A DNA stretch of 64,000 nt, from NCBI GenBank assembly GCA_003155695.1, contig PMDZ01000008.1:39362-103361 (forward strand), in the 5' to 3' direction. Positions 937-47,290 of this stretch are shown here, in pieces; the first letter of the stretch is position 1; each line of letters opens with the position of its first letter. The translations under genes and the position numbers were made by a program. The notes beneath the pieces are model-generated. The model worked only from the letters and a program-made list of their open reading frames with translations, was not told the origin of the DNA and searched no databases. The DNA comes from Candidatus Nomurabacteria bacterium (GTDB lineage: Bacteria > Patescibacteriota > Minisyncoccia > Phycocordibacterales > UBA9973).

Positions 937-1986
937 ATGGATACAAAAAAAATTAGGGTTGCAATTAATGGTTTCGGAAGAATTGGGCGGGCATTTTTAA
1001 AAATTTCGTGGGAAAGAGAAGATATCGAGATTGTTGCCATCAATGACCTTGGTTCTATCCAAAGTTTGGCTTATCTTCTTCGACACGATACAGTTTATAA
1101 AAACTGGAATCATCCTGTGCAAGCCGATAGCAATCCGGACGGAACAAATGCAAGTTTAATTATTGACGACAAAAAAATAGCATTTATTTCGGAGAAAGAC
1201 ACGACCAAACTTCCTTGGAAGGATTTGGATATAGATGTTGTTGTTGAATCGACCGGACTTTTCACCTCGTTTGATAAAGCAAAATTCCATATTGATTGCG
1301 GAGCCAAGAAAGTTGTCATCAGTGCACCGTCAAAAGGTGCCGACAGTACTGTTCCCGGAGAAACTATTCTTATGGGCATAAATGAAGAGAAGTTCGGCAT
1401 TTGTGATATTACTTCCAATGCTTCCTGTACGACAAATGCTGCTTCGCCACTTATTGCAATAATTCACGAATCCATTGGTATAGAAAAGGCCATATTAAAT
1501 ACAGTTCACGGCTATACGGCTTCACAAGCCCTTGTTGATGGTCCAAGCAAGAAAGACCTGCGTGAGGGTCGCGCTGCCGCTTGCAACATCGTTCCAAGCT
1601 CAACAGGAGCCGCCATTGCTGTTACTGAAGCCTTTCCGGCATTGCAAGGACTCTTTGATGGCATATCTATTCGTGTTCCAGTTCCAGCAGGTTCGATAGT
1701 AGATATTACTTTCATCGCCAAGCGTCCAACTACAAAAGAAGAAGTGAATGAAATTTTAACAAAAGCTTCTCTTGACCCTAAATGGCAGAAATTATTTACT
1801 GTCACCGAAGATAATCTTGTCTCGTCTGACATCCTCGGAGAAAGCCACGCTTGTATTGCCGACCTGGAAATGACTCGCGTTGTCGGTGGAAATCTGGTCA
1901 AAGTTCTCGGTTGGTATGATAATGAGATGGGGTATACATATACTCTCGTAGATCACGTAGTAAAAACGGGGAATACAATCAAATAA
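937..1986 (+). CDS. gap: glyceraldehyde-3-phosphate dehydrogenase
   Basis: INGFGRIGR NAD-binding motif, the SNASCTTN catalytic Cys motif and a WYDNE C-terminus. 349 aa. Confidence 0.95.
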   Translation: MDTKKIRVAINGFGRIGRAFLKISWEREDIEIVAINDLGSIQSLAYLLRHDTVYKNWNHPVQADSNPDGTNASLIIDDKKIAFISEKDTTKLPWKDLDIDVVVESTGLFTSFDKAKFHIDCGAKKVVISAPSKGADSTVPGETILMGINEEKFGICDITSNASCTTNAASPLIAIIHESIGIEKAILNTVHGYTASQALVDGPSKKDLREGRAAACNIVPSSTGAAIAVTEAFPALQGLFDGISIRVPVPAGSIVDITFIAKRPTTKEEVNEILTKASLDPKWQKLFTVTEDNLVSSDILGESHACIADLEMTRVVGGNLVKVLGWYDNEMGYTYTLVDHVVKTGNTIK

Positions 1987-2297: not shown

Positions 2298-3104
2298 TTA
2301 TTTTATTTCTCCTTTAAATACAAAAGTTGCCGGACCACGGAGAATAATTTCTCCTTCGGGATTTTCCGATAAGAATAATTTTCCGCCAGGGAATTCCAGG
2401 GTAATTTCTTTCAGATTTTTGTTTTTCTTTTTCAGGATTGCATAGACAGCGCAAGCGCCGGTGCCACAAGCAAGAGTAAGGCCACAACCACGCTCCCAGA
2501 CTTTCACTTTGCAATAATCATCTTTGACTTTTTCAACGAACTCAACGTTTATTTTATTTGGAAAGTGATAATCTTTTTCTACCTCTGGCCCAACCGAAGG
2601 TACATCATAATCATCCAAGCTATCAACCATAACTACGGCATGCGGATTACCCATAGAGACACATTCAAAAGTCAAACCTTCTATACTAAGTTCTCCGCTC
2701 GGAAAGTCAGGGTGAGTAAAGACCGGAGCTCCCATATTAACGCTATAGGTGTCATCTTTGTTTATTTTTACATTTTTTATTCCGGCCCTAGTATCGATAT
2801 TTAATTCTTTCGGATGAGATTCCTGTCTGCTGGTAGGCGATGTTGTTTGCTCAAGGTAGAATTTAGCCGTGCAACGTACACCATTTCCACACATTTCAGC
2901 ATCGGTTCCATCGGAATTATAATAATTCATAAAACAATCTCCTTTTTTTGAAGACTCAAGTAATATAATTCCATCAGCACCGATGCCAAAATGCCTATCG
3001 CAAATGGATTTTATATACTCTCCCTTGAGTTTTATATCTCCCTTTAGGTTATTTATCATTATAAAGTCATTCCCATCGCCTTCATATTTTTCGAATTTAA
3101 TCAT
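2298..3104 (-). CDS. dapF: diaminopimelate epimerase
   Basis: 268 aa starting MIKFEKYEGDGNDFIMINN, with two conserved Cys regions (CGNG.. / ACGTGACA). It converges on gap. Confidence 0.85.
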   Translation of the reverse strand: MIKFEKYEGDGNDFIMINNLKGDIKLKGEYIKSICDRHFGIGADGIILLESSKKGDCFMNYYNSDGTDAEMCGNGVRCTAKFYLEQTTSPTSRQESHPKELNIDTRAGIKNVKINKDDTYSVNMGAPVFTHPDFPSGELSIEGLTFECVSMGNPHAVVMVDSLDDYDVPSVGPEVEKDYHFPNKINVEFVEKVKDDYCKVKVWERGCGLTLACGTGACAVYAILKKKNKNLKEITLEFPGGKLFLSENPEGEIILRGPATFVFKGEIK

Positions 3105-3137
3105 GTGTTTATTATAACCTATATTATAATTATATAA

Positions 3138-3250
3138 AAATTTGAAATAATCTTCTCAAAGAGCACGGATATTTTTCTGCTGAAAAATTCCTCGTGTTCG
3201 CTCCGTCGAGCCTCACAAGTCTCTTTGATAAGGCTATTTCAAATTTTTGA
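3138..3250. repeat. copy A of a ~110-bp palindromic intergenic element (reverse orientation relative to copy B at 11310-11420)
   Basis: The 33-nt core cacggatatttttctgctgaaaaattcctcgtg is identical to the reverse complement of 11361-11393. The flanks are ~85% identical. Its outer arms aaaaatttgaaata / tatttcaaattttt pair with each other. Confidence 0.6.
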
Positions 3251-3272
3251 TTTATTGCTATAATGTAAACAT

Positions 3273-3749
3273 ATGAAAATTTATATAGGAAGTGACCATG
3301 CAGGTTATGAATTAAAACAAAAACTCAAGGTTTTTATACAAGAACTTGGATATGAAGTGGACGATAAGGGTGCTTTTGCTTTAAATAATGACGATGATTT
3401 TACCGACTTCATAAAGCCGGTGGCCAAAGCAGTGGCGAGCAATGAAGGTAGTGTGGGTGTAATCCTAGGTGGTTCGGGAGAAGGTGAAGCAATATGCGCA
3501 AATAGATTTAAAGGAATTAGAGCAGTTGTTTATTATGGCGGAAAAGAATTTCAAAAAGATATTCTTGGAAATAAAATGGGAATAGTTGAAGGCGCACGCC
3601 TACACAACAACGCAAACATTATTTCTTTGGGTGCCCGTTTCCTAACTCTTAAAAAAGCAGAACAAGCGGTTAAACTTTTCTTGCAAACACCATTTTCAAA
3701 TGATGAACGTCACATTAGAAGAATTAATAAGCTAGAACTTGAAGCCTAG
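3273..3749 (+). CDS. rpiB: ribose-5-phosphate isomerase B
   Basis: MKIYIGSDHAGYELKQKL N-terminus and the RpiB/LacAB fold signature (GGSGEGEAICANR). 158 aa. Confidence 0.85.
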   Translation: MKIYIGSDHAGYELKQKLKVFIQELGYEVDDKGAFALNNDDDFTDFIKPVAKAVASNEGSVGVILGGSGEGEAICANRFKGIRAVVYYGGKEFQKDILGNKMGIVEGARLHNNANIISLGARFLTLKKAEQAVKLFLQTPFSNDERHIRRINKLELEA

Positions 3750-11420: not shown

Positions 11421-11454
11421 TGTTTTGGCCAAATATCTTCGTAAACTTTATCAA

Positions 11455-11502
11455 TAAAAAAGTCCTCGGATGAGGGAGGACGAGGAGCCAGACATTTTTT
11501 CT
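11455..11502 (+). repeat. hairpin motif copy 1 (core GTCCTCGGATGAGGGAGGACGAGGAGCCAGAC flanked by A6/T6 outer stem)
   Basis: One of four near-identical cores in the window. Located ~45 nt upstream of the prfA ATG. Confidence 0.7.
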
Positions 11503-11542
11503 TGAAAAAGTTTATTACGATATATATGTTATAATTTATTAT

Positions 11543-12514
11543 ATGACTTTTGATTTAGAACAATTAAAGAAAGACCACAAAACCAGTTACTTCGCTCTTG
11601 AATACGAAAGGCTTTTGGGTGAGGAAAAAAAGGTCAATGACATGGTTAGCGAGGATGAAAGTTTGAGAGAATTGGCCGATGAAGAACTGCAAAATATCAT
11701 TTCTCAAAAAGAAGCCATTGAAAGACAACTTGAAGAAATGATAAAGAAGGAAGATGAGGAAGAAGAATTCCCGAACGAAATAATCTTGGAAGTTCGCGCA
11801 GGAGCCGGAGGTGATGAAGCTTCTCTTTTCGCTTGGGAACTGGCCCACATGTACGAAAGATATGCCGAGAAGCAAAAGTGGAATTGGAAAGTCATCGATG
11901 ATTCGTCAAATGATGTTGGTGGTTACAAAGAAGCGACATTCGAAATAAAAGGCAAGGATTGTTATAAAGCTCTCCGCTATGAGACAGGAGTTCATCGTGT
12001 CCAGCGTGTCCCGTCAACCGAAAAGAACGGTCGTATCCATACCTCAACTGCATCGGTTGCCATTCTGCCACTTCGCAAAAAGACCAAAATTGTCATCAAT
12101 CCGGCCGACCTGGAAATCGAGTATTCACGTTCAGGCGGAGCCGGCGGGCAAAATGTCAACAAAGTTGAAACTGCTGTTCGGCTGATTCACAAACCGACAG
12201 GAATTGATGTTCGCTGTACAACAGAAAGAAAACAACTGGCCAACCGTGAAAAAGCCATGATGATTCTTGTTGCCAAATTGCAGTTATTGCAAGACGAAGA
12301 AGAAGCCAGTAAATATTCCGCCAATCGCAAAAATCAAATTGGGACAGGAGACAGAAGTGAGAAAATTCGTACCTACAATTTCCCACAAGACCGCATTACC
12401 GACCACCGCATCAAACAATCCTGGTCAAACATTCCGGTCATCATGGACGGCAATATAGATAAAATAATCGACGCTCTATCTTCCGGTGTTGTTGGAAATG
12501 CTGAAGAAGAATAA
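11543..12514 (+). CDS. prfA: peptide chain release factor 1
   Basis: GGQ motif ([11 protein letters not shown]). The RF1-type tripeptide region [17 protein letters not shown] has PST in the position of P(A/V)T. Linked to rpmE as in many bacteria. Confidence 0.85.
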
Positions 12515-16517: not shown

Positions 16518-18020
16518 ATGTCAAAAAATTACATTGTAGAAAATTTAAAAAAGCAGATAGGGAGTTTCAAGAGTGATGCCCAAGCCGAGAAAGTCGGACA
16601 TGTTATCGAAGTTTTCGACGGTATAGCCAAGATTTCCGGACTTTCCGATATCAAAGCTTCAGAAATGGTTTCTTTCCCGAATGGCGAAATCGGTGTGACA
16701 CTCAACCTCGAAGAAGATTCAATCGGAGTTATTATTTTGGGCGATTTTTCTAAAATCCACGAAGGCGATGAGGTCAAGGCCATAGGTACTATTCTTTCTG
16801 TTCCGGTATCGGACTTGCAGATAGGACGTGTTTTGAATGCTCTCGGCGAGCCAATCGACGGTAAAGGCGCCATTAAAGCCGTCAAATCTAACCCAATAGA
16901 GAAGGTAGCACCTGGAGTTATTACACGTCTTTCAGTTTCGCAAGCCGTTCAGACAGGTATCAAAGCCATCGATGCTCTTATTCCAATTGGCCGTGGTCAG
17001 CGTGAGCTTATCATTGGCGACCGTCAAACAGGTAAAACTGCCATTGTTATCGACACAATTTTGAACCAAAAAGGACAAGACATGATTTGTATCTACGTTT
17101 CCATTGGTCAGAAGGATTCGAAACTTCGCAAATTGCAAACTCGACTTGAAGAAGGTGGAGCTATGGATTACACCATTATTGTTTCGGCTGGCTCCTCGGA
17201 GAGTGCCGCTTTGTCATACATCGCTCCTTATACCGGAGTTTCGATTGCTGAATATTTTATGGACCAAGGAAAAGATGTTTTGATAATTTATGATGACCTT
17301 TCCAAACACGCTGTCGCTTACCGTGAAATATCACTTTTACTTCGCCGTCCACCGGGTCGTGAAGCTTTCCCTGGAGACGTTTTCTATTTGCACTCCCGTT
17401 TGCTCGAACGCGCTTGCCGAAGAAATAAAGAGTATGGCGGCGGTTCGATTACGGCGTTGCCAATCGTTGAAACTCAATCGGGTGACGTCACGGCTTATAT
17501 TCCGACAAACGTTATTTCAATTACCGACGGACAAATATTCCTTGAAACCGATTTATTCTACAAAGGAATCCGTCCTGCTGTTAATGTCGGACTCTCAGTC
17601 TCGCGTGTCGGTTCGAATGCTCAAATTAAAGCCATGAAGAAAGTTTCCGGAACTCTGAAACTTGACCTTGCTCAATTCCGCGAGCTTGAAGCTTTCGCTC
17701 AATTCGGTTCTGACCTTGATGAAGGAACAAAGAGCCAGCTTGAACGCGGAAAACGCGCCGTCGAAGTCCTCAAGCAACCTCAATACGCTCCGGTTGCGAC
17801 CGAAGACCAAGTTGTCACACTTTATGCTCTGACTAAGGGCTTTATGGATGACGTAGCAATCGATAAAATCAAATCTTTTGAAGAAGGACTGACCGAATAC
17901 GCCCGGAAGAATGCCAAAACATTTTACAAGGAAGTTATTGAGGCAAAAATGTGGACAGACGCAGGAGAACAAGAATTAGTAAAAGTAATAGGCGAGTATA
18001 AGAGCAGTTTCGTTAAGTAA
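16518..18020 (+). CDS. atpA: F0F1 ATP synthase subunit alpha
   Basis: Walker A GDRQTGKT; alpha-type conserved blocks. 500 aa. Confidence 0.95.
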
Positions 18021-18033
18021 GTTACATCAAAAC

Positions 18034-18095
18034 ATTCTTTTCTTCGGGTCCTCGGATGAGGGAGGACGAGTAGCCAGACCAGCTCAGAAAAGAAC
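18034..18095 (+). repeat. hairpin motif copy 2 (core GTCCTCGGATGAGGGAGGACGAGTAGCCAGAC; outer stem ttcttttcttcgg / cagctcagaaaagaa)
   Basis: Lies between atpA and atpG, ~40 nt upstream of the atpG ATG. Confidence 0.7.
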
Positions 18096-18120
18096 ATTTT
18101 GATTCCGCTAAACATAATAT

Positions 18121-19065: not shown

Positions 19066-19110
19066 TTAAAATTATTATCAATATTATAAACAGCTTCACA
19101 AATTATATTC

Positions 19111-20543
<1,433 letters not shown>

Positions 20544-46748: not shown

Positions 46749-46916
46749 TTACCTGTGTTTCTCGCGCCAGTCGTAATCTTCTTCTTCGTCGTCTTTCTTG
46801 TCAACAATAGGAGTTCCGCAAGCTTGGCAAACTTCATCATAGGAACGCAGACCACAACGGGGGCAGACCGGCTCTTTTGTTTTTTTTTCTTCTTTTTTAT
46901 CATCTTCGTCGCTCAT
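46749..46916 (-). CDS. small acidic zinc-ribbon protein (55 aa)
   Basis: Hand-translated: MSDEDDKKEEKKTKEPVCPRCGLRSYDEVCQACGTPIVDKKDDEEEDYDWREKHR, with a CPxCG...CxxCG ribbon. Not in the ORF track (under 60 aa). Confidence 0.35.
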   Translation of the reverse strand: MSDEDDKKEEKKTKEPVCPRCGLRSYDEVCQACGTPIVDKKDDEEEDYDWREKHR

Positions 46917-47010
46917 ATACACAGTATAAATTATTTTCCGGGTTTTGGAAATAGTTAGAAGGTGATATAATATATTTATTATTAAAATAACCGGCTACAT
47001 TAAAATATTA

Positions 47011-47064
47011 TTTTCTTCAGGTCCTCGGATGAGGAAGGACAAGGAGCCAGACCATGAAGAAAAC
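47011..47064 (+). repeat. hairpin motif copy 4 (core GTCCTCGGATGAGGAAGGACAAGGAGCCAGAC; outer stem ttttcttcagg / ccatgaagaaaa)
   Basis: Orphan copy. A 19-codon basic ORF (47094-47153, MAKGMTHKKEVKKPKKNKK) and a strong terminator at 47161-47199 follow. Confidence 0.65.
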
Positions 47065-47290
47065 AAAATTTTAATTTCGCCTCAAAATAACATATGGCAA
47101 AAGGAATGACTCACAAGAAGGAGGTTAAGAAGCCAAAGAAAAACAAAAAATAAATTTTCTAAAAATACTTCCCGACTTCGGTTAGGGAAGTATTTTTAGA
47201 ATAATTCGACCGATTATGAATAATGTAATCTTTTTGATTTATTATTAATTTCCTTGCATAATATAATAATTTTTTATATACTCCGAACAT

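Follow-up and report, generated by a model that had tools for sequence, protein, structure and literature searches.

The window, by which we mean the whole 64,000-nucleotide stretch of DNA that was analysed, carries at about 47 kb a short unit made of a palindromic hairpin, a 19-codon open reading frame and a terminator. An acidic zinc-ribbon gene lies on the opposite strand upstream of it, and a gene for a 432-aa protein follows downstream of the terminator. The features of the unit and its upstream neighbour are:

46749-46916, minus strand: acidic zinc-ribbon gene with four cysteines, 55 aa (MSDEDD...CPRCG...CQACG...DYDWREKHR)
46923-46951, minus strand: promoter-like site TTTCCA-17-TATACT, putatively serving the zinc-ribbon gene, from a consensus scan
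46962-46970, plus strand: extended -10 box TGATATAAT, read from the sequence, putative promoter of the mini-gene
46993-47081, plus strand: hairpin copy 4, 89 nt (covariance model 71.2 bits, E 4e-13; fold -20.7 kcal/mol)
47082-47093, plus strand: A/U-rich spacer of 12 nt without Shine-Dalgarno sequence, from the hairpin base to the start codon
47094-47153, plus strand: mini-gene for a predicted lysine-rich micro-protein, with orthologues at 11 other loci that give 8 distinct peptides
47158-47200, plus strand: intrinsic terminator (-23.7 kcal/mol, z = -7.4)

The open reading frame starts with ATG at 47094 and ends with TAA at 47151-47153, and its predicted product MAKGMTHKKEVKKPKKNKK is strongly basic, with 9 Lys, 1 His and 1 Glu among 19 residues. 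The sequence and coordinates of this ORF, and the strong terminator that follows it, were as the original prediction had described them. The fourth copy of the hairpin motif, which had been placed at about 47011-47064, was found to be real, but it is larger than that: the conserved core GGTCCTCGGATGAGGAAGGACAAGGAGCCAGACC at 47020-47053 is the tip of an 89-nt hairpin at 46993-47081. From base to apex, this hairpin has GGC/GCC as its basal stem, UAC/UUC as its 3x3 loop, then a long A/U-rich stem and finally the apical domain 47020-47053. The ORF had been said to begin 40 nt after the motif, which is right when counted from the core, but only 12 nt separate it from the true base of the hairpin. 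The terminator at 47158-47200 is a GC-containing stem-loop with a U run, as expected of an intrinsic terminator; its 19-bp stem has a bulge and a UUCG loop, and the U run closes the 3' arm. A simple terminator scan missed it because the stem is bulged, and the consensus scan for promoters and terminators detected neither the extended -10 box nor the bulged terminator of the mini-gene. Counterparts of the -10 box stand before the mini-gene in relatives, as TGTATAAT (L054), TGATACAAT (L056) and TATAAT (L057/L058). On the other strand, the end of the zinc-ribbon -10 box at 46923-46951 is 6 nt from the ATG, so the mRNA of that gene would be leaderless if the predicted box is used. The 432-aa gene has its own promoter-like site at 47234-47262 (consensus scan). 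A stand-alone transcription unit had been proposed for this interval, and the promoter-like box, the ORF, the terminator and the varying genes downstream in relatives (see below) agree with it.

Orthologues of the mini-gene were collected by two routes. A metagenome scan for the 3' half of the hairpin tip followed by a gap and ATGNNNAARGG gave five further genomes, and in this set the search pattern itself fixed M.KG. The second set was independent, with contigs fetched through the neighbouring zinc-ribbon protein; the mini-ORF lay beside the zinc-ribbon gene in L050, L054/55, L056, L057, L058 and L059, and it was not beside that gene in L048 or L052. Together the related CPR/Paceibacteria genomes gave 8 distinct peptides of 18-21 aa with the consensus M-A-K-G-x-x-[HA]-[KR]-K-E-x-K-K-P-K. 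Among the 9 distinct nucleotide sequences, the variable sites were distributed over the three codon positions as 6/6/13. Ten of 16 residues were invariant, and seven of these (G4, K9, E10, K12, K13, P14 and K15) were written with two or three different codons. The frame and approximate length were preserved in all 9 sequences, and the remaining two frames contained stops in most of them.

The surroundings of the mini-gene were also compared. A terminator hairpin was found 3' of every orthologous mini-ORF, and the terminator sequences were unrelated between lineages. At every mini-gene locus examined the mini-gene was on the strand opposite the zinc-ribbon gene, either divergent from it (window, L040, L033, L043, L050, L054 and L056) or convergent with it (L030, L039 and L057-59). 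The gene past the terminator varied, being glycosyl-hydrolase-like, enolase (L033/L043) or convergent (L030, L039 and L050). Gene callers skipped the mini-ORF in every contig examined. The micro-protein had no match in Pfam, NCBIfam or PHROG models or among PDB chains, and a PDB search with a profile of the eight peptides gave no micro-protein match either. Short lysine-rich ORFs arise easily by chance in an A-rich genome, which has to be kept in mind here; on the codon-level evidence, the 19-codon ORF very probably does encode a micro-protein. Its products form what we regard as a micro-protein family that is conserved in Paceibacteria-type CPR bacteria and was previously unannotated.

In size (18-27 aa), extreme basicity and its free-standing tiny gene, the micro-protein is like the small ribosomal proteins bTHX, bL36, bS22, bL37 and eL41, and its N-terminus M-[AG]-K-G-D is reminiscent of bTHX. 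It differs from them in matching no family HMM and no solved ribosomal chain. The neighbouring protein has the zinc-ribbon motif CPRCGLRSY..CQxCG..DDEEEDYDWREK and belongs to a family of 62 clusters found only in CPR-type metagenomes, with P0001 being 100% identical to it. JGI automatic annotation named it 'ribosomal protein L37E', but the L37e models scored below threshold against it (22.9 bits with a cut-off of 71, and 19.6 with a cut-off of 27.6), and in a PDB search archaeal Nop10 and eL37 appeared at E 0.002-0.004, also sub-threshold. The AlphaFold2 model of the zinc-ribbon protein had a pLDDT of 60.6, which was too poor for a fold search. Our best guess is that the basic peptide has nucleic acid, the ribosome or the acidic neighbouring protein as its binding partner.

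The hairpin has three further copies in the window:

11435-11521, plus strand: copy 1, upstream of a TATAAT at 11530-11535
18020-18109, plus strand: copy 2, directly past the stop of a 500-aa ORF and ending 11 nt before the atpG start
19092-19178, plus strand: copy 3, 9 nt before the atpD start

Upstream of atpG, the 500-aa ORF is probably atpA. Near copy 1, the TATAAT at 11530-11535 is 7 nt from the ATG at 11543, and judging from this spacing the gene is probably leaderless, with copy 1 outside its mRNA. The 34-mer core recurred at 18047 with 3 mismatches (expected number 0 in shuffled sequence), and its 15-mer core occurred four times in the window (11461, 18047, 19118 and 47020), all on the plus strand, compared with 0.38 expected in shuffled sequence. 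Because this recurrence exceeds the shuffled expectation, the motif is not a chance product.

A one-genome-per-species scan found the core in 32 genome loci, all of them in CPR/Patescibacteria metagenome-assembled genomes labelled as Paceibacterota, Nomurabacteria or Saccharibacteria. All copies were long hairpins of the same build, in which a basal stem of 3 bp is followed by a symmetric 3x3 loop of pyrimidines (UWC/UHC), by a longer stem (about 20 bp) and by a GC-rich tip; the sequence of the longer stem was specific to each locus while its pairing was kept, and the tip of about 33 nt was almost invariant. A covariance model built on 24 copies gave 56 hits in 45 sequences (about 370 kb), some with altered, extended or permuted tips. 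The hits comprised 41 intergenic copies, 12 copies running through an ORF in sense (2 of them doubtful) and 3 running through an ORF in antisense. Analysis of 53 aligned copies showed that 93.8% of cells were paired and that 22 of 28 pairs had changed on both sides, although these copies had been aligned by fitting them to the model and the signal would be no different for a DNA palindrome. None of 500 shuffles was as good, and sliding the 3' partners by 1-3 columns was far worse. At the gathering threshold, Rfam 15 detected tRNA only, and an E-value scan of 46920-47290 gave only noise. No match of the core was found in viral contigs, and a full-text literature search with the core sequence and CPR palindromic repeats did not find a description of the element.

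Several variant structures were also seen. In the window, 3130-3254 (plus strand) forms a long hairpin (about 125 nt), differing in its apical part, before the gene that starts at 3273 (E 0.12 with the element model), and a comparable hairpin with a foreign tip lies between the zinc-ribbon gene and enolase in L048. At L003:1514-1644 and L027:3507-3628 the GGAU loop of the tip contains an additional GC-rich stem-loop, and these nested stem-loops are still in frame, inside RNase HII and LeuRS. Copies of one element sub-type at L012:6412-6511 (plus) and L015:1591-1696 (minus) occupy an orthologous spacer in opposite orientations, and this spacer lies between an RNase H-like gene (rnhA) and a ComEC-like gene. 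The difference between the two looks like an inversion of the element.

The relation between hairpin and mini-gene could be read from relatives with and without the hairpin. L058 lacks the whole hairpin, while L057, L059 and L030 have it, with near-identical flanks and an identical ORF, so that the presence/absence polymorphism by which MITEs are recognized was found here, with an empty site in L058 and filled sites in L057, L059 and L030. Comparison of filled and empty sites showed about 5 extra A-rich bases at the filled site, in which no clear target-site duplication was seen; the two arms form inverted repeats with GC..GC at their ends. In L054/55 and L056 the promoter, ORF and terminator are likewise found without the hairpin, and the leader there is 33-36 nt long; among the more distant relatives as a whole, the plain leader measures 31-36 nt. 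In the window, 123 nt separate the -10 box from the ATG, which equals 34 nt plus the 89-nt element; the 34 nt left after removal of the element fit the hairpin-free relatives, which argues that the hairpin was inserted into an existing leader. By this comparison, the hairpin is not part of the mini-gene's own design. The original prediction had reasoned that the motif is not an accident of the atp operon, which agrees with its place in the predicted transcribed leader of the mini-gene. It had also taken the motif to be a promoter-proximal or leader element by nature, and this was not supported: L054/55, L056 and L058 have the gene without the hairpin, and elsewhere there are in-frame copies in genes, copies in both orientations and a copy (copy 1) upstream of a likely promoter.

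Other palindromes were observed around the mini-gene. In L050 (about 2780-2975, minus strand) a hairpin of roughly 190 nt stands before the mini-ORF MAKGMGARKEKKKPKAAKKK; only its basal stem and its 3x3 loop correspond to the element, and its inner part, some 130 nt, is unrelated. Just past the mini-gene terminator, L058 and L059 have a second, small palindrome, CCAGATAGTGSCTAAGGCACTATCTG, which is absent from L057 and L030; to judge by this distribution it is another insertion polymorphism.

Stop-free in-frame copies were also found inside genes, and the different conserved genes concerned number at least eight (LeuRS, RNase HII, TrmD, TruB, MurB, PolA, UvrC and PepN). Sense copies lie in RNase HII (RnhB; two genomes), LeuRS (two genomes), TrmD, TruB, MurB, PolA, UvrC and a 728-aa protein, and antisense copies in aminopeptidase N (PepN) and UvrC. 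All the copies that run through ORFs are free of stops; among the intergenic copies, 34 of 41 are closed in all three sense frames. In sense the tip reads as either of two 11-residue peptides, and in antisense as another 11-residue peptide. The third sense frame contains UGA, and only a variant with no such stop in its tip uses it. The UvrC gene of L014 holds two copies, an antisense one at 1066-1159 (minus) and a sense variant at 1343-1464 (plus), and this sense variant is the one read in the usual UGA frame, the changed tip having removed the stop. In alignments to solved TrmD and RNase HII, the segment encoded by the element appears as an extra loop. Orthologous in-gene copies show compensatory changes in the stem that alter the encoded peptide. 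The tip peptide is present in 20 of the 120 closest TrmD homologues, and many others have a loop 20 residues shorter. A composite query of two element-encoded peptides gave no candidate in the protein collection; this is due to the limits of the word index, since that collection does contain TrmD homologues with the peptide.

In TrmD, the loop past ...AEPIIKAVE (homologues P0063-P0182) is an insertion hotspot, which also holds decayed elements (KARPYS), the heptamer-repeat-like NYELRIKN and the palindrome-like EVQPL...GCTSK, and the short loops keep sequence resembling the 5' arm of the element. An origin of the stems by inverted duplication of flanking host DNA, which these TrmD loops hinted at, was rejected on the ground that the empty site of L058 lacks both arms.

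The element was compared with known repeats. Rickettsia palindromic elements (RPEs) are palindromic repeats of about 100-150 bp in a reduced genome; they occur between genes and, unusually often, as in-frame insertions by which unrelated housekeeping genes gain a conserved hydrophilic peptide (PMC10969869). The in-frame occurrence in at least eight conserved genes makes the present element like them in behaviour, as a functional analogy, and the host is CPR instead of Alphaproteobacteria. It also differs in that only the tip of about 33 nt is invariant while the stems are locus-specific, and in that most intergenic copies stand 7-14 nt before a start codon. Correia/NEMIS elements, which are MITEs of Neisseria, are hairpin repeats located mostly right upstream of genes and co-transcribed with them, and they can invert and vary in presence or absence between strains (PMC10969869). 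The upstream position, the inversion and the presence/absence differences seen here are similar. What sets Correia elements apart would be their defined terminal inverted repeats with a duplicated TA, their promoters and their IHF site. REP/BIME, ERIC and REPIN sequences are likewise palindromes; they are transcribed from extragenic DNA and can make adjoining mRNA more or less stable, but they are essentially extragenic and have no conserved GC-rich apical domain. Taken with these comparisons, the element can be classed as a new RPE/MITE-like element of CPR bacteria.

Other identities of the hairpin were considered and rejected. The core motifs of a hammerhead or other self-cleaving ribozyme were absent by eye. 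An SRP-RNA-like hairpin disagrees with the multiple copies and the absence of an Rfam match, and an archaeal bulge-helix-bulge intron with the symmetric 3x3 loop and the in-frame copies. An integron attC site was set aside because the context is that of housekeeping genes without cassette arrays.

The reading that we favour, and hold with reasonably good confidence, is that the interval holds a small autonomous gene, the leader of which was colonised by a mobile hairpin repeat. Transcription would start about 7 nt past the extended -10 box at 46962-46970, and the transcript would run through the 5' UTR and the 19-codon ORF and stop at the terminator (47158-47200), with the ORF being translated into the basic micro-protein. 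An ancestral gene that already had the order promoter, leader, ORF and terminator would have received the dispersed palindromic element 12 nt 5' of its start codon. The element may spread or persist as a DNA palindrome, and both UTRs and protein surface loops would tolerate it. At this locus the hairpin most likely only adds a stable structure near the 5' end and would leave the A/U-rich start region free.

Two alternatives concern the ORF itself. The unit could make a non-coding small RNA, about 220 nt long (hairpin, tail and terminator), in which the ORF is incidental, and a strong promoter-like box and a terminator do flank a short transcript with a stable 5' hairpin, while no gene caller ever annotated the ORF. 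But conservation follows the codons and not the nucleotides, and the peptide is conserved between lineages, whereas the hairpin and terminator sequences are not. The original prediction had left the choice between micro-protein and small RNA, and had proposed that peptide conservation in relatives be checked; the eight distinct peptides speak for the micro-protein, which is favoured by the pattern over codon positions, the preservation of the frame and the synteny, and we consider the small RNA very unlikely. A lysine-rich leader peptide with the terminator as attenuator of the 432-aa gene would also give a short ORF, a terminator and then a co-oriented gene, and there is a weak similarity to Phe_leader, which involves only the terminator. 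Against it, the gene downstream varies or is convergent in relatives, which rules this arrangement out as a general explanation, the next gene in the window has a promoter-like site of its own and no alternative anti-terminator pairing was apparent in the fold, so an attenuator here is extremely improbable. A lysine-sensing leader peptide was rejected likewise, as the downstream genes are not conserved.

Another alternative concerns the hairpin and has more in its favour. In this case it would be a cis-acting RNA module of the host, leader or intercistronic, read by a conserved protein or the ribosome, that boosts translation or stabilises mRNA without Shine-Dalgarno pairing; the mini-gene would belong to its regulon, and mobility would spread the module while function would retain it. 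Among the intergenic copies, 34 of 41 are in sense orientation 7-14 nt 5' of an ATG, and the genes behind them include atpG, atpD, dnaK, infB and gap. Orthologous copies before atpD are 91-97% identical, despite saturated synonymous sites (third codon positions of atpD are 38-53% identical). The stem covariation is strong, and the nearly invariant tip is rich in GGAGG/GAGG. A Shine-Dalgarno-like core (GGAG/GAGG/AGGA at -18 to -4) was found in only 2 of 50 window genes, with a background of 8.7%. Upstream regions in the window are A/U-rich and G-poor, and many have TATAAT-like boxes 6-9 nt from the ATG, a spacing suggestive of leaderless mRNAs. The window genome thus appears to be Shine-Dalgarno-less, in agreement with the reported loss of the anti-Shine-Dalgarno sequence in part of Parcubacteria (PMC9297842). 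The position at start codons, the identity of the atpD copies and the compensatory changes are hard to explain by selfish DNA alone. However, the mini-gene is unchanged in relatives without the hairpin, so the module is not required there, and such a module cannot explain in-frame copies inside genes in both orientations, or copy 1 upstream of a likely promoter and outside the leader. One copy is inverted at an orthologous spacer. Covariation is equally expected from a DNA palindrome, no Rfam family matches, and a GGAGG tip would be useless for Shine-Dalgarno pairing if the anti-Shine-Dalgarno sequence was lost; a role of the tip as a Shine-Dalgarno sequence was rejected, the genome being Shine-Dalgarno-less. 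On balance, we regard the host module as unlikely, though the most probable of the alternatives. A further-reaching version, in which the hairpin is a portable RNA expression module 7-14 nt before starts with its tip read by the ribosome or an RNA-binding protein, and the micro-protein and the Nop10/eL37-like zinc ribbon are an undescribed ribonucleoprotein or ribosome component, is speculative and rather improbable.

With the small gene carrying an inserted repeat as the preferred reading, the findings bear on the CPR bacteria in several ways. The micro-protein family enlarges the CPR gene catalogues that are used in arguments about minimal biology. In-frame palindromic insertions in essential genes, best documented in Rickettsia, occur in another group with small genomes. 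Translated element loops (in LeuRS, TrmD, RNase HII, PolA and others) affect alignments, phylogenies and structure predictions of CPR proteins. Finally, the position of the element before start codons in a lineage without Shine-Dalgarno sequences makes it a testable candidate for marking or protecting translation start regions.
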